Source: Candidatus Uhrbacteria bacterium
GTDB lineage: Bacteria > Patescibacteriota > Patescibacteriia > UBA9934
Assembly: GCA_903827265.1 (NCBI GenBank)
Contig: CAIKHN010000009.1
Coordinates: forward strand, 151 to 64,150
Direction: 5' to 3'
Length of the DNA: 64,000 bases
The translations under genes and the position numbers were made by a program. The notes beneath the pieces were generated by a model, which searched no databases, had not been told where the DNA came from, and worked only from the letters and a program-made list of their open reading frames with translations. Shown piece by piece: positions 5,570 to 56,830 of this stretch. Positions within the stretch are counted from its first letter, which is position 1, and every line of letters begins with the position of its first letter.

Positions 5570-5986
5570 ATGAAATATTGGCTTCTCAAAACCGAACCGA
5601 GTACATACTCCTGGGACGATCTTGTTCGCGATGGCGCCACGAGCTGGACAGGAGTTCGTAACTTCCAAGCGCGAAATAATTTGCGAGCGATGCAAGTTGG
5701 TGACGCGTTGTTCGTGTATCATTCAGTGAATGAACGATCGATCCGCGGTATTGCAACGGTTACGCGGTCTGCGTATTCAGATCCAACGGCCACAGATGGA
5801 GATTGGGTCGCGGTTGATGTTTTAGTAGATCATGCCGCAGACGTTCCGCTATCACTTGATGACATCAAAAGAATTCCGTCACTGAAGAACATGGTGCTTG
5901 TGAAGAACTCTCGACTTTCTGTGCAACCGGTTACCGACGCCGAATGGGATGAATGCTTTCAAAAAATGTATCCAAAATTCGGATAA
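5570..5986 (+). CDS. EVE-domain (PUA-like) protein
   Basis: N-terminal MKYWLLKTEP…YSWDDL…W.GVRN.QARN.LR.M..GD..FVYHS is typical of EVE/DUF55. Confidence 0.7.
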   Translation: MKYWLLKTEPSTYSWDDLVRDGATSWTGVRNFQARNNLRAMQVGDALFVYHSVNERSIRGIATVTRSAYSDPTATDGDWVAVDVLVDHAADVPLSLDDIKRIPSLKNMVLVKNSRLSVQPVTDAEWDECFQKMYPKFG

Positions 5987-9192: not shown

Positions 9193-10254
9193 ATGATTCC
9201 GGGATCGCGACAGGCGCTGCAAACATACAAACGTGTTCGAGCGTTTGCACATCAGTACGAACGTTGGTTTATGCCAGCGATGCTTGTTGGTGGAACGGGT
9301 TTCGATGTGTGGCAATTTCGCGTTCTTGATTTGCGGGAAAAATTTATTGTCATGTGCGTGTACGTTGTAACGGTTATGGGTTCCATGGCTCTTACTGCGT
9401 ACAGACGTTCTGATGATCTTTCACCGTTGCGGTACTTAAAACTCGCTGCGCCGTTTGCGCAGCAATTTGCGATGGGAGGTTTGTTGAGCACTGCGCTGCT
9501 GTTTTATTGGTTCAGCGGAACGCTGTCGGTAACGTGGCCACTTGTCGTACTTGTTGCGCTCCTCATGATTTCAAACGAGACACTCCGGCACATTGTTCTT
9601 CGTCCATTGGTGCAAATTGGTATGTTGTATTTTGCGCTGTTTTCATTATTTGCAATTTGGTTTGCGCATCTTTTCGCATCGTTGAGCTGGCCAGTGTTTC
9701 TTGCAGGGGGCTTTGCAAGCATGGTAGTGATGTCGCTCTTGTTGGCGCTTCTCGTGAACCTTGGAGATTTGTATACCGACCGTATTCGGATGTGGTTGAC
9801 GATTGCTGGCGTGTTTGTGTTCATGAACGTGTGTTACTTCCTCAATATTATTCCGCCAATTCCGCTAGCATTGCGCGACGCAACAATGGCGTACAGCGTG
9901 ACTAACGATTACGTTCTTGTGACACCGGAGGAGTCATGGATCGATCGACTCATTCCTGGAGAGACTATTCTTGTGACGCCGGGCGATCCGTTGTACGCAT
10001 ATACAGCGGTGTATGCGCCAGAAGGGCTCTCAACAACAATTGTGCATCAGTGGCAACGCTACGACGACGAGACGCATCGGTGGGAAACTGAACATACGCT
10101 TTCATTCGCGATTGCCGGCGGACGACCTGACGGGTATCGCGGGTACTCCATGGTGTCGTCGCTCGCGGCAGGAAAGTGGCGGGTAAGTGTCGAAACGACA
10201 ACAGGCCAGGTGCTCGGTCGGATAACCTTCACCGTCGTCACCGGCGCAGAGTGA
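9193..10254 (+). CDS. Membrane protein with a C-terminal extracytoplasmic beta domain (DUF2914-like)
   Basis: N-terminal multi-TM region followed by a soluble C-terminal domain. Confidence 0.4.
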   Translation: MIPGSRQALQTYKRVRAFAHQYERWFMPAMLVGGTGFDVWQFRVLDLREKFIVMCVYVVTVMGSMALTAYRRSDDLSPLRYLKLAAPFAQQFAMGGLLSTALLFYWFSGTLSVTWPLVVLVALLMISNETLRHIVLRPLVQIGMLYFALFSLFAIWFAHLFASLSWPVFLAGGFASMVVMSLLLALLVNLGDLYTDRIRMWLTIAGVFVFMNVCYFLNIIPPIPLALRDATMAYSVTNDYVLVTPEESWIDRLIPGETILVTPGDPLYAYTAVYAPEGLSTTIVHQWQRYDDETHRWETEHTLSFAIAGGRPDGYRGYSMVSSLAAGKWRVSVETTTGQVLGRITFTVVTGAE

Positions 10255-10340
10255 TCGAGCGAATCAACGGGTGGCACCGAGGGACGCGAGCGCCAGTGAC
10301 GACGGTACATGTTTCGCAACGAGCAGCACGGATGCACAGC

Positions 10341-10362
10341 CACGTCGTTCGCGAACGACGTG
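10341..10362. repeat. Perfect 22-bp palindrome cacgtcgttcgcgaacgacgtg. A second copy lies at 38483..38506 inside the 38-kb repeat element.
   Basis: Exact sequence match seen by eye. Confidence 0.7.
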
Positions 10363-10465
10363 GCACGGCCGTAGTCGAGTGAAACGAGGCGTCACGGCGT
10401 AGCGTCCTTGCGCACAGTGAAGAAACATGTACCCGAGTCACCAAGCGAGCGATTAGGAATTGACT

Positions 10466-10493
10466 GGATCCCCGCCTTCGCGGGGATGACTGA
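10466..10493 (-). repeat. Short hairpin repeat family R1 (tcagtcatccccgcg-N4-gcggggatcc), reverse orientation. Other copies are at 20488..20515 and 27857..27884.
   Basis: Three near-identical copies, each an 8-bp-stem hairpin, all intergenic. Confidence 0.7.
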
Positions 10494-17689: not shown

Positions 17690-18090
17690 CCCTCCCCCTT
17701 TCCGAGGGGGAGTAGGAGGGGGTGGAAGCTATAGAAATCAGACCTGATTCTTTTGAAAAGGTCGTGACGGAAATGGCCGCGTGAAGAAAATGTCGGGAGT
17801 ATGGGTGTTCGATTTTAAAAGGGGTATTTTGTTAACGCAACTCATTCGCATTAAGGAATCGGTGGTTAATTATTGCGTGGACGCATAGGTCGTATTGGAC
17901 CAATACGACCAATATTCAATACTTAATTGAAACTGATTTCGAAATTTTCAGATTTTCGATTCATATCGCAACGTGGTGTGAAGTTTAAAAGGGTCAAAAA
18001 ACGACAGTAGTGTTTCAAAATGAGGATACCGACACGGACGATTCACCTCCCCGACCCCTCTAAAGAATCAGTTTCATCCTGGTCTTTTTC
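17690..18090 (+). repeat. Copy 1 of an intergenic repeat element. It comprises an upstream ~70-bp module X (hairpin ctcccctttccgaggggag, then …aatcagacctgattcttttgaaaag), a ~320-bp interior bounded by inverted repeats ctgattctttt (17744..17754) / aaagaatcag (18062..18071), and the interior palindrome ggtcgtattgg-a-ccaatacgacc. Copy 2 at about 38135..38570 has the interior in the opposite orientation.
   Basis: Direct comparison with 38135..38570: X and the tail are direct repeats; the interior is about 95% identical as a reverse complement. Confidence 0.65.
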
Positions 18091-20487: not shown

Positions 20488-20515
20488 TCAGTCATCCCCG
20501 CGCAGGCGGGGATCC
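20488..20515 (+). repeat. Hairpin repeat R1 copy (tcagtcatccccgcgcaggcggggatcc), followed by a second hairpin (gaacgggacgagc-gaa-gctcgtcccgtt) serving as the ABC-F terminator
   Basis: Sequence identity with the copies at 10466 and 27857. Confidence 0.7.
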
Positions 20516-20587
20516 ATCAGAAAGCGTGAACGGGACGAGCGAAGCTCGTCCCGTTTCGTTAATCAGCGCGTCGCTGATCCGTTGTAC

Positions 20588-27856: not shown

Positions 27857-27884
27857 TCAGTCATCCTCGCGTATGCGGGGATCC
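27857..27884 (+). repeat. Hairpin repeat R1 copy (tcagtcatcctcgcgtatgcggggatcc), preceded by two degenerate tcagtcatcc half-copies at about 27822 and 27830
   Basis: Sequence identity with the other R1 copies. Confidence 0.65.
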
Positions 27885-28044
27885 AGTAATCATCGGCTTC
27901 CCTCACTCATCAACGGGTCCTGTCACCTCGGACCCCGTTACGGTGCTCACCGCGCACGAGGCGTTTGCGGTAATCGGAATCGACATCTGTGCTCGTTGCG
28001 CTCCGTACGGGGGCCTCCCTCGGTGCCACCCGTTGATTCGTTCG

Positions 28045-28428
28045 CTACGCTTTCGCCTTAAAATCCAACGACAACGAATTCACGCAATATCGCATTCCCG
28101 TCGGTGCTGGTCCATCGGGGAACACGTGGCCAAGGTGGGCGCGGCAGTTGGCGCAAAGAATTTCTGTTCGTGCCATGCCGAGCTTTCGATCGGGTTCTGT
28201 TGCAACATTTGCGGAGTTTGCGGTATCCCAAAAACTCGGCCAACCGGTTCCGGAATCAAACTTCGTATCCGAACTAAACAATTCGTGTCCACAATTTGCG
28301 CAAACATACATTCCGGCGTCGGTTGTTTTGTAATACTTCCCGCTAAACGGCGGTTCGGTGCCTTTCAGAAAACAGACATTTTCCTGTTCTGGTGTGAGAT
28401 TCGGGTTCCGGATGCGTTCGTGTTCCAT
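28045..28428 (-). CDS. msrB: Peptide-methionine (R)-S-oxide reductase MsrB
   Basis: CANC…CRAHLGHVF.DGP, the GWPSF motif and zinc-binding CxxC pairs. Confidence 0.85.
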   Translation of the reverse strand: MEHERIRNPNLTPEQENVCFLKGTEPPFSGKYYKTTDAGMYVCANCGHELFSSDTKFDSGTGWPSFWDTANSANVATEPDRKLGMARTEILCANCRAHLGHVFPDGPAPTGMRYCVNSLSLDFKAKA

Positions 28429-38134: not shown

Positions 38135-38570
38135 GACTAAGACTCTCCCCTTTCCAAGGGGAGTAGGAGGGGTTGGAGCTACAGGACTTGAATCTGATTC
38201 TTTGAAAAGTTGGGTCGGGAATCGGAAACTGATTCATCCGGGTTGGCTATCCTCATTTTGTGGAGCACATGTCGTTTTTTGACCCTTTTAAACTTCACAC
38301 CACGTTGCGATATGAATCGAAAATCTGAAAATTTCGAAATCAGTTTCAATTAAGTATTGAATATTGGTCGTATTGGTCCAACACGACCTGTGCGTCCACG
38401 CAATAATTAACCACCGTTTCCTTAATGCAAATGAGTTGCGTTAACGAAACACACAGTTTCAAATCGAACACCCCTACTCCCGACACGTCGTTCGCGAACG
38501 ACGTGTCCCGACAAGAGTTTTCCGTTCCCCCCAAAACTATCAAAGAATCAGTTTCATTCTCAGTTCATAT
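38135..38570 (+). repeat. Copy 2 of the intergenic repeat element. Module X (38146..38210) and the tail are direct relative to copy 1. The interior between ctgattctttg (38194..38204) and caaagaatcag (38541..38551) is reverse-complemented relative to copy 1. It also contains the R2 palindrome at 38483..38506.
   Basis: Direct sequence comparison with 17690..18090. Confidence 0.65.
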
Positions 38571-43392: not shown

Positions 43393-45652
<2,260 letters not shown>

Positions 45653-45822
45653 CGAACGAATCAAAGGGTCTCGTATCGCTCGCTGGTGACTCGGGTACAT
45701 GTTTCTTCACTCGCCGCAACGATCGTCACGCCACGACGTCTCGCTCTGCTCGACTGTGGCTGGACGACTGTGCGGTTCGTTGCGAAACATATACCCTCGT
45801 CACTGGCGCTCGCGCCATCCCT

Positions 45823-46263
45823 ATGCTTAAACTCAAATACCAAATCGTTACTCCAGAACGCGTCGTCCAAGAAGGCGAGGCGGATTCGATTTCGGTCATG
45901 ACTAGTCAGGGAGAAATCACCGTCCTTCCGCATCACGTGCCGCTGTTAGCGCTCATGAAGGCTGGTGAGATGCGTGTTATGAACGGCGGACAAGAATTAT
46001 TGTTCGCGACGTCGACCGGGCTTTTCGAAGTTCGAGATGGATCGTCGGTTGTTGTGCTGGCGGATACCGCGGAACGGAGTGAGGAACTCGAGCTTGCCGC
46101 GATCGAAACCGCGAAAAAGCAGGCTGAGGAGAATCTCAAAAACATACGGAACTCGAACGATGTTGGTTTCGTCGACGCCGCAGCTCACCTCGAGCGCGAG
46201 CTTGCTCGGTACCGTGTAGCTCTAAAGAAAGGGAAGGCGAAATATCACCGAACCGAAGCATAA
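45823..46263 (+). CDS. atpC: F0F1 ATP synthase subunit epsilon
   Basis: Beta-sandwich plus C-terminal helices. The gene is separated from atpD by an unusual 170-nt GC-rich spacer. Confidence 0.85.
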   Translation: MLKLKYQIVTPERVVQEGEADSISVMTSQGEITVLPHHVPLLALMKAGEMRVMNGGQELLFATSTGLFEVRDGSSVVVLADTAERSEELELAAIETAKKQAEENLKNIRNSNDVGFVDAAAHLERELARYRVALKKGKAKYHRTEA

Positions 46264-46292
46264 CGGGGTCAGGTCTTTACCTTTTACTTTTT
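46263..46292 (+). repeat. 30-bp repeat R3, copy a (acggggtcaggtctttaccttttacttttt), starting on the last base of the atpC stop codon
   Basis: Identical to copy c. Reverse-complement copies are at 48021 and 55306. Confidence 0.8.
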
Positions 46293-46331
46293 ACACAAAA
46301 CATCTGCGTGATTGCAGATGTTTTGTGTTTA
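46293..46331 (+). terminator. atpC terminator (acacaaaacatctgc-gtgatt-gcagatgttttgtgt-ttat)
   Basis: Perfect 15-bp stem followed by a T-rich tract. Confidence 0.7.
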
Positions 46332-46372
46332 TCGTTGATATTTGCTACATTCCTCGAGCTCAAGGGGTTCCC

Positions 46373-46708
46373 ATGTCTTCGTATACGCTTCGTCTGATCC
46401 TCGTCACGTTGTCCGCCCAGAACGAAAAGGAGGAGGTTTACTTCGCGAGGTATCTCAAAGAAGGATTCCTTATCGCCGCTGAAACCAAAGAGGCCGTGTC
46501 GGCGCTGCTCGTCATTCCACGTGAGGCGTTCGAGGCGCGTCTGAAGGATGCGGTCAGTGAAGAACGCGCGTTCACGGAATCCGAGGACCGGGTTCGCGAA
46601 GTCTGGCGGGCGGTGGACAGGCTCTATTCGCCGAAGGATGGGGTCAAGATCGTCCGGTTCGAAATTGTTCAGTTCAGTATGGCAGAGACGACGGAACTTC
46701 CGCTCTGA
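46373..46708 (+). CDS. Orphan hypothetical protein (cassette gene 1). It is followed by its own terminator hairpin at 46708..46768.
   Basis: ORF. GC-rich. Downstream hairpin ccgcactc…gagtgcgg plus a T-rich tract. Confidence 0.4.
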   Translation: MSSYTLRLILVTLSAQNEKEEVYFARYLKEGFLIAAETKEAVSALLVIPREAFEARLKDAVSEERAFTESEDRVREVWRAVDRLYSPKDGVKIVRFEIVQFSMAETTELPL

Positions 46709-46849
46709 CCGCACTCTGCACCGTCCTGACGAAGGACCGCGTGCGAGTGCGGTCCTTTCGTTTTGCGACACTTGTAGAAAGGGTTTTTACGTCGCCTCAT
46801 TCTTGAACTTCCTGTAACTTCGTGGTGAAATTGTGCGCGGAGACTGACC

Positions 46850-47383
46850 ATGGAAATCAGTGGGTACCTCGGCCCCGAGGTGAAAAAAGGGGGTTTGTTG
46901 GTAACGATGGAAAAGTGCATGCTCGACATCAGCAGGATTCACCTGAATGTTCAGGCGTGTGTTCGGGAGGTGGAGTCCACGTTGGGACGCTACTGTCGAG
47001 GGGCGTCAGGACTGGCACAATACGTCGTCAATGCGCCTGTGTTCGTCGTCCGTCTCGGTGACGGCCATTCGCCGGAGCTCTTGGAACGCCTTCGACTCGT
47101 GTACGCCACCGGCAAACGGCCTTGGCCGTTCGTGGGCGTCTGGGCATCGAACGGACATGCAGTCATCGTGCTCCTTGGAGAGGGAGCCGAATCTGGTGCC
47201 TCGACCTTGACGGCGATTCGGCGGATGATGCATCTCTTCGGACGGAACGAACGTGCTTCATTCTTCACATCGCGCTCCATCGATCCAAAACTTCACGAAA
47301 CGCTCGGAATCGTGAAAGACGAAATCCAGGGGAATCGAGAAGGCGGACTTCCGGCGTTCTGGTATCAACTCATTCCGGTGTGA
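46850..47383 (+). CDS. Orphan hypothetical protein (cassette gene 2)
   Basis: ORF. GC-rich. It is followed by the 45-nt terminator repeat at 47394..47438. Confidence 0.4.
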   Translation: MEISGYLGPEVKKGGLLVTMEKCMLDISRIHLNVQACVREVESTLGRYCRGASGLAQYVVNAPVFVVRLGDGHSPELLERLRLVYATGKRPWPFVGVWASNGHAVIVLLGEGAESGASTLTAIRRMMHLFGRNERASFFTSRSIDPKLHETLGIVKDEIQGNREGGLPAFWYQLIPV

Positions 47384-47393
47384 CATCGACGAC

Positions 47394-47438
47394 AAACGGG
47401 GAGGGCTTGCGCGGCGAGCCCTCCTTTCGGTTTGCGAA
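47394..47438 (+). terminator. Terminator repeat R5 (aaacggggagggcttgcgcggcgagccctcctttcggtttgcgaa). An identical copy lies at 47967..48011.
   Basis: Two identical 45-nt copies, each following an orphan gene. GC hairpin plus T-rich tract. Confidence 0.65.
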
Positions 47439-47481
47439 GGGAAGAATCCCTGGTACTCTTTTGGTGTTCACAGAGGAATGC

Positions 47482-47961
47482 ATGACACGAGATCAAGCGA
47501 TTCGGCTCGTCATCGATGGAACTGTCGCGCTCGAAGAAGGGGCCTCAAAAATCGACATTACGCTGATTCGAAAACCGGACCATCCGGAAAAACTCGAACG
47601 CGATTACCGACAGCGCGGATGGATGGTCGCGAGGTGGAGGGAGTGTCAGATGGACGACGGTGCAGGACTGTTTCATCTTCGCCGCAAGAGTGGAGAGGAG
47701 ACTGAGGCGGAGGCGCTGTTCAATCTGTTCGAACGCGACGAGTGGTTCGACGGAAGAAAGAGGTGGGAAAACCGCGAGCTCCTTGCCGGCGGGGTCGGCG
47801 CGAATCCCGGCGAACTCACGAGTCAGCTGGATGTACTGTTCGCTTCGGTTCCCTCAGACGCTGTGAAGGGTCGGAGGGGATGGAAGGTTACGGAAATCGC
47901 AGAAACGAAGGAACACGGAACGGTGCTCGTCAAAATTCAGAGAACCGATCCAACGAAATGA
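47482..47961 (+). CDS. Orphan hypothetical protein (cassette gene 3)
   Basis: ORF trimmed from track 47122..47961. It is followed by terminator repeat R5 copy 2. Confidence 0.4.
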   Translation: MTRDQAIRLVIDGTVALEEGASKIDITLIRKPDHPEKLERDYRQRGWMVARWRECQMDDGAGLFHLRRKSGEETEAEALFNLFERDEWFDGRKRWENRELLAGGVGANPGELTSQLDVLFASVPSDAVKGRRGWKVTEIAETKEHGTVLVKIQRTDPTK

Positions 47962-48020
47962 CGGAGAAACGGGGAGGGCTTGCGCGGCGAGCCCTCCTTT
48001 CGGTTTGCGAAAAAGTAAAA

Positions 48021-48050
48021 AGTAAAGACCTGGCCCCGTCGTGTGACGGG
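48021..48050 (-). repeat. 30-bp repeat R3, copy b (reverse orientation, 28/30 identical), closing the 1.75-kb GC-rich cassette
   Basis: Reverse complement of copy a with two mismatches. Confidence 0.8.
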
Positions 48051-48132
48051 TGGACAACCGGCTTGATGAACTTGGCGCTAAACCATACACTTCGCCTGAT
48101 GTATTCGTGATTATTTTGTAATTTCGCGTCTT

Positions 48133-49851
48133 ATGACACCGCTCGAGAATTCACTGTACGTTGCCAGCGTGGCTCCGGTGCTTGCAATTGTTGTATCGAC
48201 GGTCCTTCGTCCGGCGGTTTCCGCACGATGGAACGCTATTCTCCTTGCGCTTTCTGGCATTGGAGGCGTTGTGGCTGGCGCGTACGGAGCGGTCGCGGAA
48301 ACGCCATTTACCATGGCTGTGCCGATGTTTTACGGGATGACGATCGCGTTGGATCGCTTCAGTGCGATCTTTTTTCTTGGCATTTCTCTCGCTATTGCTG
48401 TCGCTGGATTGTGCGCGCTGTCGCAGATCGGAAAACATCATGACGCGGGCAACGTTCGAATGCTGGGTATTCTCGGTGGTTTGCTCGTTGTAAGTCTTCA
48501 ATGGACGCTTCTTGCTGGGAATATTATTGGTTTCGTGACTGCGTGGGCAACCATGATGCTTGCTGCATTTTTGTTGCAGCGTATTGTCCGCAATACTGCG
48601 GAGACGACAGGACTTCAATTCCTTGCAATCGCGCAAGTGAGCACTATTGCAATTGCGTCGGGATTGTTTGTTCTTTCATCTGGTGCACTCTTTAGCGACT
48701 TTGGGACGTTGGCATATGTCGCTGGTCAGTTGAGTGTCACCAATCTCATTGTTGCGTACGGTTTACTGTTTCTGGGCTTTGCGGCGGCAATGGGAGCGTT
48801 CCCGTTCCATCGAGGATTCATTTCTGCGGTAACACATGTTCCCGCACACATTGCAGTCCTTTTTCGTGGTGGGCTCTCTGGTGTTGCATTGTACGGATTT
48901 ATTCGGTGCATCTTGTTTATCCTCCCCCCACTTTCCATTTGGTACTCGCTTCCTGTTGCGGTGATTGGAGCGCTCACAATGCTCTGTGGAGCGTTCTGCG
49001 CATTGAATGAGAAGAGTGTACAACGTATCGTCGCGTATCTCAGCGTGTCGAGTATTGGATTGACGGCATTGATGGTTGCTGGCGCGATGGCATTTCAGGC
49101 ATTGGCAATTTATGACGCCATGAATGTCATGCTCTTTGCAGCATTCATTCAACTCACTATTAACGTCATTGCGACGTCAGGGCTTTTCCTTGTGGCTGAT
49201 GTTATTGGATCTGATCTTCATACGAGCGGAGGCCTTGCAAAGACGTTGCCAAAATTTACCATCACGACGTTCGTACTTCTGTTTGGAACGGTTGGTTTTC
49301 CACCGTCTGCAGCGTTCACAAGCATCTGGATGGCTGGTAGCACATTCCAAGCAATGTTCTCGAGTGCTCCTGTTGCTGCCATTGCGCTCCTTGTCGTTGG
49401 GATTCTCTCAATATTCCTCATGATTGCCGCAATTCTTCGCGTCATTATCGGCGTGTTCTTCGGAGAGTCGCGTGGCGGCGTGGATGCGCGTGTCTCCGAG
49501 CCATCTGACGCGCAACTTGCTCCAATCGTTCTTCTTGCGCTTCTTACATTCGTGAGTGGCTTTGCACTCCCACAGCTTCTGGTGTCCATCGGCGCAGATC
49601 CACTCACAGACTCCGCAGGAACATTTAACGGGGGAATCGTGACTGCATTCGGGACATTGCGTATGGGAACAATTGGGCTGCTCGTGCTCGGTATTGGGGG
49701 CGTAAAATGGTATTTCCGCGACAGCATTTTGGAGCGATTGCCGTCGTTCGAGACCATCGAGAAATGGCGACTGTCCTGCATGAATCGCATGTCCTTCGGA
49801 AGCAAATTCACGAAACTTTGGAACGGTGCGCTTGAAAAATTACGTCGCTAA
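48133..49851 (+). CDS. Large polytopic membrane protein, possibly of the proton-conducting antiporter / complex-I NuoL/M/N-like superfamily
   Basis: About 14 predicted TM helices. Weak resemblance to antiporter-like subunit core helices. Not confirmed. Confidence 0.4.
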   Translation: MTPLENSLYVASVAPVLAIVVSTVLRPAVSARWNAILLALSGIGGVVAGAYGAVAETPFTMAVPMFYGMTIALDRFSAIFFLGISLAIAVAGLCALSQIGKHHDAGNVRMLGILGGLLVVSLQWTLLAGNIIGFVTAWATMMLAAFLLQRIVRNTAETTGLQFLAIAQVSTIAIASGLFVLSSGALFSDFGTLAYVAGQLSVTNLIVAYGLLFLGFAAAMGAFPFHRGFISAVTHVPAHIAVLFRGGLSGVALYGFIRCILFILPPLSIWYSLPVAVIGALTMLCGAFCALNEKSVQRIVAYLSVSSIGLTALMVAGAMAFQALAIYDAMNVMLFAAFIQLTINVIATSGLFLVADVIGSDLHTSGGLAKTLPKFTITTFVLLFGTVGFPPSAAFTSIWMAGSTFQAMFSSAPVAAIALLVVGILSIFLMIAAILRVIIGVFFGESRGGVDARVSEPSDAQLAPIVLLALLTFVSGFALPQLLVSIGADPLTDSAGTFNGGIVTAFGTLRMGTIGLLVLGIGGVKWYFRDSILERLPSFETIEKWRLSCMNRMSFGSKFTKLWNGALEKLRR

Positions 49852-49860
49852 TTTTTTCCT

Positions 49861-51063
49861 ATGCTGAGTATTCTGCTCTCACTCGGTCATATTGATACGT
49901 TGATGTGGTGCGAATTTGGAATTATCGGAATTCTCGCGCTCGGAACGCTTGCCCTTCACATTGGCGGAACACGAGCACATCGCTCTGAACTTTCAGTGAC
50001 GATTATGGGACTTATTGCGATTGTTGCAGCGGTCATGACCGACAATCTTGCTGTGCTTTCGCTGGCGTTTGCGTTGGCGCTTATTGCTGCGTCATGTTTG
50101 GCACTTCATGCGGAGCGTGCGGCAAATGCAAAGGCGAGACTCACCATAATGGTGGTATGCGGCTTCGCGGCAGTGCTTTACGTTATTGGGGCATACCTTT
50201 TCATGAAGCTTCAGACAGACGTTGGTATTGGCTCGTGGCAGGCATTGTCGTTTAGTGGAGTCATCAGCGTTGAGCGTATGAGCGGCGTTCTTGCGCAATA
50301 TGCGTTGAGCATTGTTGGCATTGCAACGTTGGCGTCGTGCTGGTTATGGATCCGTAAATCACGCTTCTCAAGTTTTGTTGCCGGGGCGGCTCCAATGGTG
50401 TTTATCATTGCGTTCCTCCGCTTAAAATTGGTTGTCGACCGTGTGCTTGCGGATAGCGGAGCTTGGACGAACACTATTTTTCTTGTTGCCGGTGTCGTTC
50501 TTGTCGCTGCCGTTGCCGCAAAAATGATGTTCAAAACGCATGCGCATGTCATTAAGTGCTCTGGCGTGGAGCATATTGGTATTGCAGTTTTCATGATCGG
50601 CGCAGGATTTGCCGGAATTATCCCTGCAATTCTTCACCTTGGTGGGCAAGCGGTTGCACAGTCTGGTTTGTGGCACGCCGCGCAAGATACGGAAATTATT
50701 CGTACAAACAAAACGCTCAAAGTGCTGTGCATTGCGCTGTACGCCGCAACGCTCGGTGCGCCGTTCTCCGTTCTCTTTGTGAGCCAACTCATTGGTATTG
50801 GATACGCGTTGCAGTCGCATCTCGTCCTTGGACTCATCGTCTTCGCGCTTGTTGGTGTTCTAAGTATCATTATGGTTCGTGAAGCATTACACTTCAGCTA
50901 TGACGTACAACCGAACGCAGAGCCAATGACGAAGCATCAAAAGGTCCTCACGGTGGTTCTTGCGATGCATGTGTTGCTTCTTTTTGGTGTCGGTGGATAC
51001 ATGCTTACACAACAAGGTATTCAGTTTGCAGTTTCCGTTGCTCAGAATGTCGCAGCGCTGTAA
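49861..51063 (+). CDS. Second polytopic membrane protein (about 12 TM), adjacent to and possibly functionally linked with the upstream gene
   Basis: Hydrophobicity pattern only. Confidence 0.35.
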   Translation: MLSILLSLGHIDTLMWCEFGIIGILALGTLALHIGGTRAHRSELSVTIMGLIAIVAAVMTDNLAVLSLAFALALIAASCLALHAERAANAKARLTIMVVCGFAAVLYVIGAYLFMKLQTDVGIGSWQALSFSGVISVERMSGVLAQYALSIVGIATLASCWLWIRKSRFSSFVAGAAPMVFIIAFLRLKLVVDRVLADSGAWTNTIFLVAGVVLVAAVAAKMMFKTHAHVIKCSGVEHIGIAVFMIGAGFAGIIPAILHLGGQAVAQSGLWHAAQDTEIIRTNKTLKVLCIALYAATLGAPFSVLFVSQLIGIGYALQSHLVLGLIVFALVGVLSIIMVREALHFSYDVQPNAEPMTKHQKVLTVVLAMHVLLLFGVGGYMLTQQGIQFAVSVAQNVAAL

Positions 51064-51066
51064 AAC

Positions 51067-54003
51067 ATGTCGTCGCTTCTCGAGCATTTGAACAGTGAAC
51101 AACAGCAAGCGGTCACGCATGGCGATGGCCCGCTCATGATTATCGCTGGCGCAGGAACAGGAAAAACGACCGTCATCACCAAGCGCATCGCGTGGCTCAT
51201 TGAACAGGGAAAAGCAATGCCGGAGAATATTCTTGCCTTAACATTTACCGACAAGGCTGCGAATGAAATGGAGGAACGCGTCGACGTGTTGCTGCCAATG
51301 GGATACGTCGATTTATCCATTTCGACCTTTCACGCATTCTGCGAGAAGGTTCTTCGTGAACACGGCGTTGATATTGGAATCCCGCAGGACTTCACGGTTG
51401 CTTCCGAGGTCGATGGTTGGCTGTTCATGCGACGGCATCTTGCTGATTTCAATCTCGACTATTACAAGCCTCGAGGAACTCCAACGAAATTCTTTAAGTT
51501 GCTGCTTTCCCATTTCTCGAGAGCAAAGGACGAAGGAATTACGCCGGATCAATACATTGCGAATGTTGAGAACCAAATTGCATCGATGACTTCGGGATCA
51601 GAAGAGGCATTTGATGCGCTACCGGAAGAAGAGCGACTCGAATGGATTAAGCATCGAGAAGTCGCTCGAGCGTACAAAACGTATCAGGATATTTTGATCG
51701 CAGAAGATGCGCTCGACTTTGGCGATTTGCTCGCATACACCGTTGAACTCTTTAAGACTCGGCCGAATATTCTCGCGGAGTATCGAAAGCGGTTTACGTA
51801 CATCGTCGTCGATGAGTTTCAAGACACGAATAGTGTCCAGTACGAACTCGTGAAACTTTTGGCAGCGCCGAAAAACAACCTCACGATTGTTGGAGACGAT
51901 GATCAAGCCATTTACAAATTCCGTGGAGCAGCACTCGCGAACATTCTCACGTTCCGATCGGATTTTCCTGATACGAAAAAGATCGTGCTCGTTCACAATT
52001 ATCGTAGTGGCAGAGGGATTCTCGTTGTGGCGTATTCGTCCATCACCAAGAACAATCCGCATCGGCTCGAAATCTCCGAAGGGTTATCAAAGCAACTGAT
52101 CTCGAATATCGAGCACACAGGAAATGTCCACCACATCCACGCGGCAACGCTCGAGGACGAAGTTGCGACCGTCGTCGAAACCATCACATCGCTCCACGAC
52201 GAAACTGGTGCGAACTGGAAAGACTTCGCGATTTTGGCGCGAGGCAACGACCACGTCGATCCGTTTTTGGAAGCGCTCGAACGTGCCGGTATTCCGTACC
52301 GATTCATGGCGTTGTCTGGCTTGTACACGATGCCGATCATTCTTGATGCGCTTTGCTATCTTCGTGTCATCAACGCACCGCACGATTCACCGTCGCTCTA
52401 CCGAATCCTCTCTCATCCACGATTAGGATTGTCGCAAGAAGATCTGACGGCACTCATGTTCTATGCTCGACGAAAAGGAATGTCGTTGTTTGATTTATTA
52501 ACGTACGCCGATGCTGCACGTATTTCGATGCAGGGGCGAAATACCATCATCGATCTTCAGCAGAAACTCGGTGAACTTCGAAACAAAGCAAAGCGACTGC
52601 CAATCACCGAGCTCTTCGTGACAATGATGAAAGAAACCGGATTACTCGGTGACTGCCAGCGCGCCTCAGAAATGGAACAGCAGGAGCTCTACAGGTTCCT
52701 CGAGCGGTTCTTTAATCGGCTGAAGCGATTCGTTGCAATGAACGACGATGCAACGTTGCCACGATTCATCGAGGAGTTCGATGCCGAACGTGCGGCAGGG
52801 GAGGACGGCTCCGTTGCACAGGATCCTGAGGAAGGCCCGGACGTTGTGTCGGTCATGACTGTGCACGGATCAAAAGGTTTGGAGTTCCGATACGTATTTG
52901 TCATCAATCTTGTTGAGCAACGTTTTCCATCGGTGAGCCGATCGCAAGCAATCGACTTTCCGCCGGGATTAATGAAAGATGAGGTTGATGGGAACGATCA
53001 CGTTGCAGAAGAGCGTCGACTGTTTTATGTTGCGATGACGCGAGCAAAAGAGGGTTTGTATTTGATGAGTGCCGAAGATTACGGAGGATCGCGAAAGCGC
53101 AAAATTTCCCGGTTCCTCGATGAGCTCGGTTATACCAATACGATCAGCGTGGCTCGTCCTGAGAATATTGCGGACACTCTCGCGCTTGAAGTTGGTAAAA
53201 AACCAACAGGCGATGCGAACATTCATATTCCGGACAAGATTAGCTTCTCGCAGATTGCAGCATTCAGTACATGTCCATTGCAATACAAATGCGCACACAT
53301 CATTGGTGTTCCGTCGTACGGTAAGCATCAGATGAGTTTCGGAAAGTCGATGCACAATGCGTTGCAAGCATTCATGGAGCGCATTATTGCCGCAAAGGCT
53401 GCGCATCAGGCAACGTTGTTCGGTGGCGTCACCGAATCCATCGCGCTCCCAACGATGAAAGATCTGCTCGATATGTACGATCGATCGTGGATCGATGAAT
53501 GGTATCCGGACGATGCAACCCGCGATGACTACCGTGCTCGAGGTGCAGAAATCATGAAGGAATACTATCGCGTCGTCTCGGAAAATCCACCGTCGCCGAA
53601 ATACATCGAGAAAGGATTTACGTTGAAAATTGATGGCATCCTCGTGAAGGGGCGTATCGACAGAATCGACGACGTCGAAGGCGGCATTGAAATTATCGAC
53701 TACAAGACCGGTACACCGAAAACAAAACTCGAGTGGGACGATCGGCGACAGTTGGTGCTGTACGCGCTTGCTGCAGAGGAGAGCTTTGTTCCACCGCTCG
53801 TCGTCAAAAAGCTGACGTATTATTATTTGGAATCAAATACGGCGGTCAGCTTCGAGCCAACCGACAAAGACAAAGAAAAACTGAAGATGCAAATTCGCGA
53901 GAGCATGGAAAAAATTCGGACAAGTACGTTTCAGGCAACGCCGGGGCAACACTGTCAGTATTGTGACTTTAAAGATATCTGCCCGTATGCAAGACCAGCC
54001 TAA
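51067..54003 (+). CDS. UvrD/PcrA-family SF1 DNA helicase fused to a C-terminal PD-(D/E)xK (RecB/Cas4-like) nuclease domain with a Cys cluster (AddA-like helicase-nuclease)
   Basis: Helicase motifs (GAGTGKT, DEFQDTN, VGDDDQAIYKFRGA, …TVHGSKGLEF, VAMTRAK). C-terminal IIDYKT…QLVLY…CQYCDFKDICP. Confidence 0.8.
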   Translation: MSSLLEHLNSEQQQAVTHGDGPLMIIAGAGTGKTTVITKRIAWLIEQGKAMPENILALTFTDKAANEMEERVDVLLPMGYVDLSISTFHAFCEKVLREHGVDIGIPQDFTVASEVDGWLFMRRHLADFNLDYYKPRGTPTKFFKLLLSHFSRAKDEGITPDQYIANVENQIASMTSGSEEAFDALPEEERLEWIKHREVARAYKTYQDILIAEDALDFGDLLAYTVELFKTRPNILAEYRKRFTYIVVDEFQDTNSVQYELVKLLAAPKNNLTIVGDDDQAIYKFRGAALANILTFRSDFPDTKKIVLVHNYRSGRGILVVAYSSITKNNPHRLEISEGLSKQLISNIEHTGNVHHIHAATLEDEVATVVETITSLHDETGANWKDFAILARGNDHVDPFLEALERAGIPYRFMALSGLYTMPIILDALCYLRVINAPHDSPSLYRILSHPRLGLSQEDLTALMFYARRKGMSLFDLLTYADAARISMQGRNTIIDLQQKLGELRNKAKRLPITELFVTMMKETGLLGDCQRASEMEQQELYRFLERFFNRLKRFVAMNDDATLPRFIEEFDAERAAGEDGSVAQDPEEGPDVVSVMTVHGSKGLEFRYVFVINLVEQRFPSVSRSQAIDFPPGLMKDEVDGNDHVAEERRLFYVAMTRAKEGLYLMSAEDYGGSRKRKISRFLDELGYTNTISVARPENIADTLALEVGKKPTGDANIHIPDKISFSQIAAFSTCPLQYKCAHIIGVPSYGKHQMSFGKSMHNALQAFMERIIAAKAAHQATLFGGVTESIALPTMKDLLDMYDRSWIDEWYPDDATRDDYRARGAEIMKEYYRVVSENPPSPKYIEKGFTLKIDGILVKGRIDRIDDVEGGIEIIDYKTGTPKTKLEWDDRRQLVLYALAAEESFVPPLVVKKLTYYYLESNTAVSFEPTDKDKEKLKMQIRESMEKIRTSTFQATPGQHCQYCDFKDICPYARPA

Positions 54004-54037
54004 ACGCAAACGGAGTTCGCTGACGCAGATTAGCAAA

Positions 54038-54334
54038 ATGCTCGAAGGCACGCTGAAACGTCACGGCATTACAAAACAAGTGACCGCAGCAATCATCGTC
54101 GACCGCGCAAAGGAGATTCTTGCGGAAATGCTCGAAGGCTCGCCGCTTGCTGATGACGTTCGTGTTTCGAGTTACGCTGCTGGTATTCTCGTTCTTGGAT
54201 GCGACAACGCACCAGCGACGTTTGATATTAGTGGAATGATCCCAACAATTCTGGCGCGAATTCAATCCGAAATCCCCGAAGCTGATATCACGAAAATTAT
54301 TGCCAGAGTCCAGAAGGAGAAGGGGAATTTCTGA
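54038..54334 (+). CDS. Small protein, DUF721/DciA-like (tentative)
   Basis: Size, position after the helicase and the pattern …IVDRAKEIL…GILVLGCDN…; the start is uncertain, with 53987 as an alternative. Confidence 0.3.
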   Translation: MLEGTLKRHGITKQVTAAIIVDRAKEILAEMLEGSPLADDVRVSSYAAGILVLGCDNAPATFDISGMIPTILARIQSEIPEADITKIIARVQKEKGNF

Positions 54335-54344
54335 CAGGGTCTGA

Positions 54345-54374
54345 ACGGGGTCAGGTCTTTACCTTTTACTTTTT
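54345..54374 (+). repeat. 30-bp repeat R3, copy c (30/30 identical to copy a), ending 4 nt before the ATG of the next gene
   Basis: Exact match. Confidence 0.8.
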
Positions 54375-54378
54375 TACT

Positions 54379-55185
54379 ATGCGCGATGTATTTGAAACGG
54401 GTAACAAGGACAGCGATGTTCAAGAAAGGCAAATTGGCCACGGAGAGTTCGGCGATATTCGGGTAAGGCGAATGAGCAGAAACGGCGTTGAATCGCTTTG
54501 CGCTGAAAAAGATTACCGAGGCGATGTTGAACGTGGGCAACACGCATACAGTGTTTGGTTTGCGTTGCACAGCGCCGGTGTTCCAACTTTTACCTGGTAT
54601 GAGAGGAGTAGCGATCGCGATGACGTTATATCCATGCCATTTGTTGGAAGTCCGTCACGCGAAAACGGAAAGCACGTTCCTGGCGATATCCTTTGCGCGA
54701 CTCCGTTGCAGCGAAGCGAAGGGATGAATATTTTGGAAAAAGAAGGACTCGCAATTGACGAGGAAAATATTGATGCTCTTTGTATAAATGTCCTCGAAAT
54801 TATTCGTGGAGCTGATGCTATTAACGCCGAACTCACCCACGATTCCGTGCTTTTTCGTGCGACATATCACGAGAACACGTGGAAATTGTCGGAAATTTTT
54901 ATCGGCGACTTTGACGCGGTATCTGTTCACGGTGAAGAGGCCGGATACATTAGCCCAAGAGAACTCCATGAAAATAATCTCATGGCCGTTGTTGGTACAA
55001 CACGGCATTTCGTCGAGGAGTTCTGCAAGAAGAGCTCGTCAATGACGGCGGAAGGGATCGGTGACCTTTTAAAGGAATCTGTACGGATCGGCAGGACGCT
55101 CTCTGAGGAAGAAAAGAAGAGAATTCTTGAGGAATCGACAGTTCCTTTAGTCGCCATGAATGTTACATCTTGGGACGATTTGTAA
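54379..55185 (+). CDS. Orphan protein with a kinase-like signature (…LTHDSVLF… / …IGDFDAV…), tentatively an atypical kinase-fold protein
   Basis: HxD-like and DF[GD]-like motifs. The gene is flanked by R3 copies. Confidence 0.35.
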   Translation: MRDVFETGNKDSDVQERQIGHGEFGDIRVRRMSRNGVESLCAEKDYRGDVERGQHAYSVWFALHSAGVPTFTWYERSSDRDDVISMPFVGSPSRENGKHVPGDILCATPLQRSEGMNILEKEGLAIDEENIDALCINVLEIIRGADAINAELTHDSVLFRATYHENTWKLSEIFIGDFDAVSVHGEEAGYISPRELHENNLMAVVGTTRHFVEEFCKKSSSMTAEGIGDLLKESVRIGRTLSEEEKKRILEESTVPLVAMNVTSWDDL

Positions 55186-55192
55186 AATTTAG

Positions 55193-55221
55193 AGGGAGTC
55201 GGGTCTTTACCTTTTTCTTTT
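55193..55221 (+). repeat. R3 variant copy d (gggagtcgggtctttacctttttctttt)
   Basis: About 23/30 match to R3. Confidence 0.55.
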
Positions 55222-55305
55222 GCGATTTACGAGAAGTTTTCGGAATGATCTGTATGAAGCTCGCAGTGAGTAGAAAAGGATCGATTACGGGGGTGATATG
55301 ATACC

Positions 55306-55335
55306 AAGAGTAAAAGGTAAAGACCCGGCCCCCGT
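55306..55335 (-). repeat. R3 variant copy e (reverse orientation; aagagtaaaaggtaaagacccggcccccgt), abutting the ATG at 55336
   Basis: About 25/30 match to the R3 reverse complement. Confidence 0.65.
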
Positions 55336-55716
55336 ATGTCCCTCCGACAATATCTTATTGCCCTCGCGATCGGCACTGCTATTAGCATTTCTGCGTGGTG
55401 CATTATTGTGATGTCTATTAATCCTGCTACTGCAGGTTGGCTCGCGTTTTCGGTGTTTTATCTTACGCTTGGCGCGGGAATTGCTGGGCTATTTACTATT
55501 GGGGGAACGGTTATTCGCTCACGGAAATACGCGGAAGATCAAATTCATTCAGCGGTTGCCCGATCGTTTCGTCAGGCAATGATGCTCTCCGGATTATTTC
55601 TTTCTTGCTTGTTTTTACTTTCCCGCGATCTGTTTTCACTAGGAACCATGTTGTTATTAGTCGTTCTTGTCGGCCTCGTTGAGCTACTCATGATGAGTAT
55701 TCGCAAGGAGGCATAG
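55336..55716 (+). CDS. Small four-TM membrane protein, hypothetical
   Basis: Hydrophobicity. Confidence 0.45.
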   Translation: MSLRQYLIALAIGTAISISAWCIIVMSINPATAGWLAFSVFYLTLGAGIAGLFTIGGTVIRSRKYAEDQIHSAVARSFRQAMMLSGLFLSCLFLLSRDLFSLGTMLLLVVLVGLVELLMMSIRKEA

Positions 55717-55771
55717 TGAAAGGTGTGGATAGAGCCATTTCGGAGATTCCGAATCCCTGGCAACATCATGG

Positions 55772-56830
55772 TTGCCTATGTTTAATCGTTTTTTTGGAAA
55801 GTTCTCCGAGGACATCGGCATCGACCTTGGAACATCGAATACCCGTGTTTTCGTGAAAGAGAAGGGGATCGTGATGAACGAGCCTTCGATTGTTGCAATT
55901 AACACGCGAACGAATCACATTCTGGCCGTTGGAAAAATTGCGAAGGACATGGTGGGAAAAACTCCCCCGCATATTCAAATTACTCGTCCACTCACCAAAG
56001 GCGTCATTTCCGACTTCGAAGTCACCGAAAAGATGTTGAAATACTTTATCGACAAAGTTCATGACGATGCGTTTACACTGGTTCCTCGACCGCGAATCGT
56101 AATGTCGGTGCCAATGGAAATTACGGAAGTTGAGCGCAAGGCCGTCGAGGACGCCGCACTCGCTGCAGGAGCTCGTCAGGCGCTTCTTGTGGAGGCCCCA
56201 ATCGTTGCAGCAATTGGTGCAGGGCTTCCTATTGAAGAATCGCTCGGAAGCATGATCGTCGACATCGGTGGAGGCACAACGGAAATTGCCGTTATTTCAC
56301 TTTCCGGAATTGTCACATGGAAGTCGCTTACTGTTGCAGGCGATGAAATGACGAAACATATTTTGCAGTACGCGCGTGATGTGTTTAACCTCTTACTTGG
56401 TGAACGCGTCGCAGAAGACGTAAAGTGTCATATTGGTAGCAGTCTTGATACTGGCGAAGGATTGCGAATGACCATGCGTGGCCGCGACCTTATTACCGGT
56501 CTCCCAAAGGAAGTCACGGTGAATGACGGTCAGATTCGCGAGGCTCTCAACAAGTCTGTCCGAACAATCATCGATAACATCAAAGCAACTATTGAACTTA
56601 CTCCTCCTGAACTCGTTGCAGATATTTATGAACGAGGAATAGTTCTTGTTGGCGGAGGGAGCCTTCTTCGCGGACTTGAGCGATCGATCTCAAAGGAAAC
56701 AGATATTCCAGTGCGTCTTGCCGAAAATCCTGACGCGGCCGTTGTTCGCGGTTGCGGCGTGTTGCTGGGTGACGATCGTTTGCTGCAGGAAATCGCGCTT
56801 CCGACAACCGGTGTCGATCGTCGACGATAA
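55772..56830 (+). CDS. mreB: Rod-shape-determining protein MreB
   Basis: Actin-fold motifs (IGIDLGTSNT, …DIGGGTTE…). Confidence 0.9.
   Translation: MPMFNRFFGKFSEDIGIDLGTSNTRVFVKEKGIVMNEPSIVAINTRTNHILAVGKIAKDMVGKTPPHIQITRPLTKGVISDFEVTEKMLKYFIDKVHDDAFTLVPRPRIVMSVPMEITEVERKAVEDAALAAGARQALLVEAPIVAAIGAGLPIEESLGSMIVDIGGGTTEIAVISLSGIVTWKSLTVAGDEMTKHILQYARDVFNLLLGERVAEDVKCHIGSSLDTGEGLRMTMRGRDLITGLPKEVTVNDGQIREALNKSVRTIIDNIKATIELTPPELVADIYERGIVLVGGGSLLRGLERSISKETDIPVRLAENPDAAVVRGCGVLLGDDRLLQEIALPTTGVDRRR

Follow-up and report, generated by a model that had tools for sequence, protein, structure and literature searches.

The unit of a REP (repetitive extragenic palindrome) is an imperfect palindrome of 20-40 nt that forms a hairpin and carries a GTAG or CGTC tag; systems that combine REPs or REPINs with a REP-associated tyrosine transposase (RAYT) have reportedly been described by Nunvar et al. 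in 2010, by Bertels and Rainey in 2011, and by Ton-Hoang et al. in 2012. RAYT-like genes that lie between long terminal inverted repeats (TIRs) have been named TIRtrons and their enzymes TIRYT; many TIRtron TIRs share the motif GGGGWSAS, and members of TIR families are found singly, in dimers, or in clusters (Di Nocera et al. 2013, PMC3733652). The TIRYT enzymes constitute TnpA_REP subclass 2.1 and have C-terminal tails resembling HTH_23, HTH_28, or DnaA_C (Quentin et al. 2018, PMC6006769). We analyzed a 64,000-nt stretch from a Candidatus Uhrbacteria bacterium (contig CAIKHN010000009.1, positions 151 to 64,150; the whole stretch is referred to as the window) in which a pair of inverted 30-nt repeats brackets three orphan open reading frames (ORF1, ORF2, and ORF3) downstream of atpC. 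The initial annotation, made from the sequence alone, took this arrangement for a mobile three-gene cassette. Our comparison with relatives indicates that the two 30-mers are probably independent copies of a TIRtron-associated 27-nt repeat family and that the orphan genes are older residents, bracketed by chance.

Genes and repeats downstream of atpC

The two arms, each 30 nt long, lie at 46263-46292 (+ strand; copy 1) and 48010-48039 (- strand; copy 2), 1717 nt apart. They are real inverted repeats, complementary at 28 of 30 positions as the text of the initial annotation had it; the word "perfect" in its title was wrong. The 30-mer occurs three times in the window at up to 3 mismatches, against 0.00 occurrences expected from shuffled sequences. 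Copy 1 does begin at the final base of the atpC stop codon (TAA, 46261-46263). Its 27-nt unit (approximately 46264-46291) has 0 mismatches to the 23-nt core of the family and lies between this stop codon and the intrinsic terminator of the atp operon (46293-46328, + strand), a 16-bp stem followed by UUUAUCGUU. The terminator hairpin (RNA minimum free energy of -23.5 kcal/mol, z -6.5; also listed by a terminator scan) is located directly 3' of the left repeat and inside the bracket. Rather than the whole cassette, it is only the 30-mer that is wedged between the atpC stop and the terminator. Copy 2 is placed after the ORF3 terminator and ahead of the promoter region of the next gene.

We compared this locus (AtpC 100%; ORF1, ORF2, and ORF3 with one repeat copy per end) with the contexts of AtpC homologues, searching for the repeat at up to 5-6 mismatches. 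The closest relative, L172 (AtpC 92%), is colinear with window positions 45820-48300 at 74% nucleotide identity and retains the atp terminator with compensatory changes. Its ORF1 (69% amino acid identity), ORF2 (49%; intact, with no stop codons by tblastn), and ORF3 (63%) are ordered as in the window, and a search allowing up to 6 mismatches found no repeat at this locus. A clean 42-nt gap in L172 takes in the right repeat, and the left-repeat position is occupied by 28 nt of equal length that are 46% identical to the repeat. In L182 (AtpC 84%), an ORF1-like gene, ORF3 (56%), and an ORF2-like gene occur in this different order, with no repeat found. L173 (AtpC 81%) has ORF3 (50%) only and no repeat at this site; its terminator stands directly 3' of the atpC stop, and a solo repeat fills its atpD-atpC spacer exactly. 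Two further arrangements occur at AtpC identities of 79%: L175-L177 carry an unrelated 187-aa gene, and in L183 the interval from atpC to the downstream gene is empty; no repeat was found in either. Copy 1 has a recognizable counterpart in no relative examined, and copy 2 is not present in L172, L173, L175, L182, or L183.

Because relatives carry the genes in place without the repeats, the repeats do not mark a mobile three-gene cassette. Whether a single repeat unit is present varies from relative to relative regardless of the genes, and the genes and the repeats have separate histories, whichever status is assigned to the left stretch in L172. Three further points speak against a cassette. 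No target-site duplication is visible beside the inverted repeats, and the flanks (pair A, GCATA/.../CGTGT; pair B, TCTGA/.../ATGTC) contain no direct repeat; the gap in L183 is empty, yet its limits do not coincide with the repeat boundaries; and the two observations that the initial annotation had itself set against a cassette are largely what we found, namely a relative whose genes and gene order match, and the 30-mer beside unrelated genes in many genomes. The interior is richer in GC than its surroundings, as had been noted, by a modest excess rather than clearly so (0.56 versus a window mean of 0.505 [sd 0.037]; approximately 5% of 500-nt segments reach 0.57).

All three genes of the initial annotation are present on the + strand, each followed by its own terminator, a stable hairpin with a U-rich tail. 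ORF1 (46373-46708, 111 aa) and ORF2 (46850-47383, 177 aa) are lineage restricted, with ratios of nonsynonymous to synonymous substitution (dN/dS) of 0.35 and 0.48, respectively. ORF3 (47482-47961, 159 aa; dN/dS 0.19-0.32), which follows atpC in L172, L182, and L173, is the oldest of the three and has a single further representative among 1.84 billion proteins. No transposase or integrase is encoded between the arms, as previously noted: ORF1-3 match nothing significant in Pfam, PHROGs, PADLOC, or PDB sequence searches, nor does a 268-aa protein encoded elsewhere in the window (see below). All three genes are intact in one relative, L172; between it and the window their dN/dS is 0.32-0.48, versus 0.055 for atpC, and at 0.19-0.48 over all comparisons made, the three are under purifying selection. 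ORF1-3 are therefore real, fast-evolving genes.

The hairpin 3' of ORF1 lies at 46709-46760 (+ strand, by RNA folding), and those 3' of ORF2 (47395-47438, + strand) and ORF3 (47968-48011, + strand) are identical to one another over 44 nt, in keeping with the duplicate terminators of the initial annotation. Their 29-nt core, GGGGAGGGCTTGCGCGGCGAGCCCTCCTT, is 100% identical at 47398-47426 and 47971-47999 in the window and at 5576-5604 and 6153-6181 in L172, placed 3' of ORF2 and of ORF3 in both genomes. The surroundings are approximately 74% identical, with a synonymous divergence (dS) of approximately 0.5-1, and this identity suggests concerted evolution or strong constraint on the hairpin.

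Beyond copy 2, the region at 48056-48132 (+ strand) precedes a gene for an Mrp/Nuo-type membrane protein (48133-49851). Its sequence (GTGGACAAC...AAACCATACACTTCG) is strongly kept across relatives, being almost identical in L172, though synonymous sites are near saturation there, and recognizable in L173, L182, and L183. Judged by its sequence, this region is probably a promoter (TTGATG, a 17-nt spacer, and TACACT, at approximately 48075-48110) plus a regulatory leader; a promoter scan did not list the TTGATG-17-TACACT arrangement. From these positions, copy 1 would be transcribed in the atp 3' untranslated region, and copy 2 lies just 5' of the promoter-like leader. We saw no evidence of joint action by the repeat pair at 46263 and 48039.

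A 27-nt repeat family and its linked transposase

The 30-mer is a member of a 27-nt repeat family, G-GGGTCAGGTCTTTACYTTTTAC-TTTT, which has five copies in the 64-kb window; the three additional copies (at 54345, 55195, and 55332), 8 kb farther downstream, like the atp terminator within the bracket, had gone unnoticed in the initial annotation. Scanning metagenomes for the core pattern yielded 50 loci, and with other loci included we collected 67 copies having different flanks. These give the consensus G-GGGTCAGG, with copies 1 and 3 of the window beginning GGGGTCAG. The unit is sharply delimited, and the pattern's two free positions read T in 65 of 67 copies and A in 64 of 67. Contigs with the repeat span 34-74% GC, and of the genomes that bear it one is labelled Campylobacteraceae and another Patescibacteria. 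Tandem, convergent, and solo copies are seen in L138, L163, L167, L170, and L173.

An all-against-all comparison of the ORFs near the motif revealed one recurrent protein of approximately 285 aa, whose gene is enclosed by a convergent repeat pair in L143, L162, L167, L180, and L181. This protein matches the Pfam family Y1_Tnp (PF01797; E values of 6e-12 to 2e-13) and the NCBIfam model NF047646, REP-associated tyrosine transposase (86.4 bits; cut-off, 80). A copy of the gene with an internal deletion lies between the same repeats in L170. The transposase is matched by 7077 database proteins (E <= 1e-30), many of them from Uhrbacteria or Patescibacteria and named transposase or RayT. Its C-terminal tail gives a subthreshold match to the helix-turn-helix family HTH_38 (E value of 0.0017; 18.5 bits versus a cut-off of 27), and several close homologues carry precomputed PF13384 or PF13936 annotations.

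A single repeat unit folds as DNA at 0 to -1.9 kcal/mol, no better or only marginally better than shuffled sequences. Doublets do fold: the segment at 55192-55338 in the window reaches -24.2 kcal/mol (z -5.1), and a back-to-back pair in L013 reaches -31.3 kcal/mol. The family is therefore TIR-like and not a classical palindromic REP. Three TIRtron features occur together here, a Y1/HUH transposase gene bracketed in related loci, an outer end (GGGGTCAG) that conforms to GGGGWSAS, and a dispersed repeat family; by these sequence features, the repeat is a member of the TIRtron/TIRYT kind. To our knowledge, Patescibacteria are new hosts for TIRtrons. The core is identical beside transposases that are mutually only 39-52% identical and at orthologous sites with dS of approximately 1 or more, which argues for strong constraint or continual recopying.

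The window itself contains a TIRtron locus at 54345-55338, between dciA and a gene for a small membrane protein. Copy 3 (54345-54374, + strand), identical to copy 1, is the outer repeat next to dciA and is conserved at the orthologous position in L167, L178, and L181. Copy 4 (55195-55221, + strand) is degenerate, with 3 core mismatches, and aligns with the TIR just past the 3' (stop-codon) end of the transposase gene in L180, L181, and L167. Copy 5 (55306-55335, - strand; 2 core mismatches) abuts the ATG at 55336 of the small membrane-protein gene, is orthologous to the outer TIR in L167, L180, and L181, and forms with copy 4 the hairpin of -24.2 kcal/mol. Between copies 4 and 5 lies an unstranded deletion remnant (55222-55305) of approximately 82 nt with traces of both ends of the transposase gene and of a decayed inner TIR.

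L167, L180, and L181 are 78-80% identical to the window on either side of 54375-55291, and all three have the transposase gene there. In L167, which belongs to the Patescibacteria genome that also yielded L053, positions 4-1536 correspond to window positions 56831-55292 and positions 2419-2678 to 54374-54110, with the transposase gene between the two blocks. A four-way alignment with L180, L181, and L167 places a gap of approximately 830 nt in the window that removes the transposase gene and the inner repeat, and a local transposase hidden Markov model detected no Y1 transposase in any frame of the 64-kb window. On this alignment, the window lineage lost the transposase gene by deletion and the repeats stayed.

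Beside the lost gene, a slot flanked by two directly oriented TIR copies holds the orphan gene for the 268-aa protein (54379-55185, + strand). This protein has one homologue only (66% identity), in the same slot of L178 and followed there by the transposase C terminus. L180 carries a matching gene end in the slot, L181 has an unrelated 354-aa orphan gene, and L167 has none. A single-sequence AlphaFold2 model of the 268-aa protein has a mean pLDDT of 41.9.

Copies outside the Patescibacteria and at unusual sites were also observed. Back-to-back copies forming a perfect 29-bp hairpin occur between two genes in L013 (6418-6477), L125 (6630-6687), and L127 (4824-4883), all Campylobacteraceae-type contigs of approximately 35% GC; the doublet is REPIN-like and occurs in a phylum distant from Patescibacteria. 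Solo copies, too, are seen in contigs with GC contents of 70-74% (L122, L123, and L136). In L145, a Patescibacteria contig from Hainich H41, a TIR copy at 828-849 is read in frame as KVKGKDLTP in the C-terminal domain of mnmA; the domain's Pfam alignment is 8 residues longer than the profile, and a second TIR copy lies just 5' of the gene start. These features are consistent with a tolerated insertion of approximately 9 codons, as judged from the sequence.

Other searches added little. A scan of genome contigs with a 17-mer core gave 120 matches, mostly chance given how unspecific this core is, and the longer motif occurred only in L013 and L053. No match was found with a 21-mer in IMG/VR viral contigs, nor by BLAST of the 30-mer against plasmid and phage records, a weak negative because low-complexity filtering may hide the T-rich half. 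In Rfam, a scan covering 45500-56000 turned up nothing of relevance, and a literature search on the motif string surfaced only unrelated papers. L150 and L171 were rejected as chance matches in coding sequence (an apparent CorC-type [CBS-domain] gene in which the motif encodes GQVFTFY).

Origin of the repeat pair

We propose that a TIRtron, a RAYT-like Y1/HUH single-strand-DNA transposase gene (TIRYT, TnpA_REP subclass 2.1, with a putative C-terminal helix-turn-helix) between convergent repeats, gave rise to single repeat units that were scattered into intergenic gaps, as RAYT enzymes do with REPs and REPINs. One unit would have landed between the atpC stop and the atp terminator, and another after the ORF3 terminator, ahead of the next operon's promoter. 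ORF1-3 would be older genes, passed on vertically and evolving fast in an inter-operon gap of variable content, and there is no sign that they move as a unit. By analogy with the IS200/IS605 TnpA and the E. coli TnpA_REP, the transposase would recognize the 27-mer on single-stranded DNA and cut and rejoin at its edge, which would spread single or paired units into permissive terminator-to-promoter gaps. We infer the binding and cleavage of the 27-mer by the transposase, its copying through a single strand, and the timing of each gain.

Several observations weigh against this account. The 28-nt stretch in L172 could be a decayed ancestral copy, in which case the left repeat may predate the split from L172; with synonymous sites near saturation (dS near 1), the stretch may be either a decayed copy or unrelated sequence. 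The left repeat may thus be older than the right one. A single repeat forms no hairpin, unlike the known substrates of IS200/IS605 and RAYT enzymes. No homologue with this genome's contig signature is present among the best 120 of the 7077 transposase matches. TIR binding, cleavage, or mobilization has been shown for no TIRYT (PMC3733652, PMC6006769). Finally, the variable cargo slot shows turnover of repeat-bounded DNA, which leaves some room for repeat-mediated gene movement.

This last observation bears on an alternative in which the 27-nt repeats define exchangeable slots, with genes swapped by the HUH transposase or by recombination between repeats. We regard it as unlikely. The flanks of the slot loci are 71-80% identical to those of the window. 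If the alternative were true, this would be a cassette system built on an HUH transposase, the pair of repeats at ORF1-3 would represent a slot that formed recently, and the near identity of the 27-mer across phyla would permit exchange between distant hosts.

A very unlikely alternative is that 46263-48039 is one nonautonomous TIR-bounded element with three passenger genes, mobilized in trans by the tyrosine transposase and inserted whole after atpC. The arms are convergent, with the GGGG end outward, as they are around the transposase gene; the interior is somewhat GC-richer; the content of the gap between atpC and the next gene varies among relatives and is empty in L183; and the repeat-bounded cargo at the TIRtron locus differs between relatives. 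Yet L172 is colinear and has the three genes in the same order with the right repeat missing, L173 has ORF3 alone without flanking repeats, and L182 has reordered genes without repeats, so that these three loci already largely refute a single element. The lack of a target-site duplication also speaks against it, the atp terminator would have to be element DNA, no second copy of the interior was found, and ORF3 has one other representative family-wide. Of the nonautonomous element proposed in the initial annotation, the transposon-type terminal inverted repeats and the absence of an enzyme gene between them stand, the former because related genomes have a Y1/HUH tyrosine transposase gene enclosed by the 27-nt unit; the three-gene block as the bounded unit does not.

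It is similarly improbable, to a high degree, that the 27-mer is mainly a host signal, such as a site bound by a helix-turn-helix protein or an RNA element at the ends of genes, and is not mobile. Its extreme conservation over contigs of 34-74% GC would fit such a signal, as would the copies that abut stop or start codons (46263; 55335/55336), the repeat that exactly fills the atpD-atpC spacer of L173, and the retention of the repeat in the window despite the loss of the transposase gene. The orientation of the repeat relative to genes is inconsistent, however: copies 1 and 2 both follow + strand genes and have opposite orientations. At orthologous sites, some close relatives have a copy and others do not; in L145, one copy sits in frame within mnmA; and no Rfam family matches. 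A tight link to a transposase gene and to a derivative of it with an internal deletion is a usual mark of mobile DNA.

An integron-like or other site-specific-recombinase cassette, or an inverton flipping between the inverted repeats, has 30-nt inverted repeats around promoterless small genes and no transposase inside in its favor and is nevertheless extremely unlikely, given that the single repeat has no attC-like internal palindrome, that no integrase, invertase, or Xer-type gene was called within approximately 10 kb, that contigs of this species show one listed gene arrangement (in a collapsed listing), and that L172 has the same orientation without the repeats.

Independent insertion of two TIRtron repeats around resident genes thus remains the favored explanation, and it carries a general lesson: a convincing inverted-repeat "cassette" can arise from two unrelated short-repeat insertions around resident genes, and a handful of relatives is enough to settle the question. 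The analysis extends the little-studied TIRYT/TIRtron class to the small genomes of Patescibacteria and documents both the loss of a transposase gene while its repeats persist and orthologous sites that have gained or lost a single 27-nt unit, among them an operon spacer and, apparently, an in-frame position within a gene. The core, identical despite transposase identities of approximately 40-50%, provides a concrete candidate DNA substrate for this enzyme class.

Neighboring features and comparison with known systems

The window contains further repeats of other kinds. A second, unrelated intergenic family occurs at 45653-45822, 10224-10493, 20488-20516, and 27857-28050. The first of these sites is the atpD-atpC spacer, which is unusually long (170 nt) and 85-90% complementary to 10285-10443; shorter pieces of this family (TCAGTCATCCCCGCG..GGGGATCCA) recur at 20488 and 27857. 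The corresponding spacer contains only the solo 27-nt TIR in L173 and a different sequence in L172. An inverted repeat of 227 nt (17780-18006 and 38270-38496) is 93% complementary, with arms 20 kb apart. GC-rich tandem coding repeats with periods of approximately 240 and 290 nt occupy approximately 900-2000 and 3650-4320, the + strand reading GTCGCAGTCGTTGTCG motifs; these tandem repeats look like part of a large repetitive surface-protein gene on the - strand. A subthreshold match at 52978-53076 (+ strand) to Rfam RF03531, "C. difficile sRNA included into helicase gene" (a score of 42.1 bits versus a gathering score of 65.2; E value of 2.7e-4), lies inside a UvrD/PcrA-type helicase-nuclease gene (51067-54003) and is probably conserved coding sequence.

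Several known kinds of element were considered for the repeat and set aside. An attC site is an internal palindrome, imperfect and bearing R''/L''/L'/R' boxes and GTTRRRY; the 30-mer lacks any internal palindrome, nor does GTTRRRY occur at its edge, and with no integrase or other recombinase gene called within approximately 10 kb, the integron-like cassette of the initial annotation was rejected. Tn3-family ends, suggested by the GGGG start, were rejected on the lack of a 5-bp duplication and of a TAAG inner end. Sites of XerC/D dif modules are improbable, as the 30-mer seems to lack the dyad-plus-spacer layout of dif.

Miniature inverted-repeat transposable elements (MITEs) and cargo transposons, such as Tn3-derived miniature elements (TIMEs) and mobile insertion cassettes (MICs), likewise have short inverted repeats with no enzyme encoded between them, and the remnant at 55194-55338 resembles a miniature element. 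The atpC locus differs in that it has no target-site duplication, an interior that is repeated nowhere else, and genes that are syntenic in repeat-less relatives. A MIC-like cargo transposon was rejected because block-wise presence and absence and a target-site duplication are both lacking; L172 and L182 have the genes without recognizable repeats, and L173 has ORF3 alone.

With IS200/IS605 elements and derivatives of these that are associated with palindromes, the system shares a superfamily (HUH, one catalytic tyrosine; Pfam Y1_Tnp) and the lack of target-site duplication. IS200/IS605 elements differ in having dissimilar subterminal hairpins rather than terminal inverted repeats, in being multicopy, and in carrying their own transposase gene.

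The resemblance to REP/REPIN-RAYT systems is closer. Both have a usually single-copy, vertically inherited Y1 transposase flanked by a short repeat whose dispersal it would carry out, repeats located for the most part in intergenic 3' regions, and doublets that fold into long hairpins, and the transposase reaches the NF047646 cut-off. The single unit here, however, is not palindromic and has no GTAG or CGTC tag; a classical REP was ruled out because of this lack of a palindrome. REPs are species specific, whereas the 27-nt unit is shared by very different genomes, and the pair at 46263 and 48039 is separated by 1.7 kb, which is not REPIN-like spacing.

TIRtrons match best, with an approximately 285-aa Y1/HUH RAYT-like gene between long nonpalindromic inverted repeats that start with GGGGWSAS and with scattered extra TIR copies. 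Two differences stand out: here the whole 27-nt unit, not just an 8-nt motif, is near-invariant over contigs of 34-74% GC, and in the window the transposase gene is deleted while the repeats persist, beside a variable cargo slot between two direct TIR copies. What is new here is the host group, the loss of the gene with the repeats kept, the near invariance of the 27-mer across genomes, and the variable slot, points that are noteworthy without changing the overall picture of TIRtrons.

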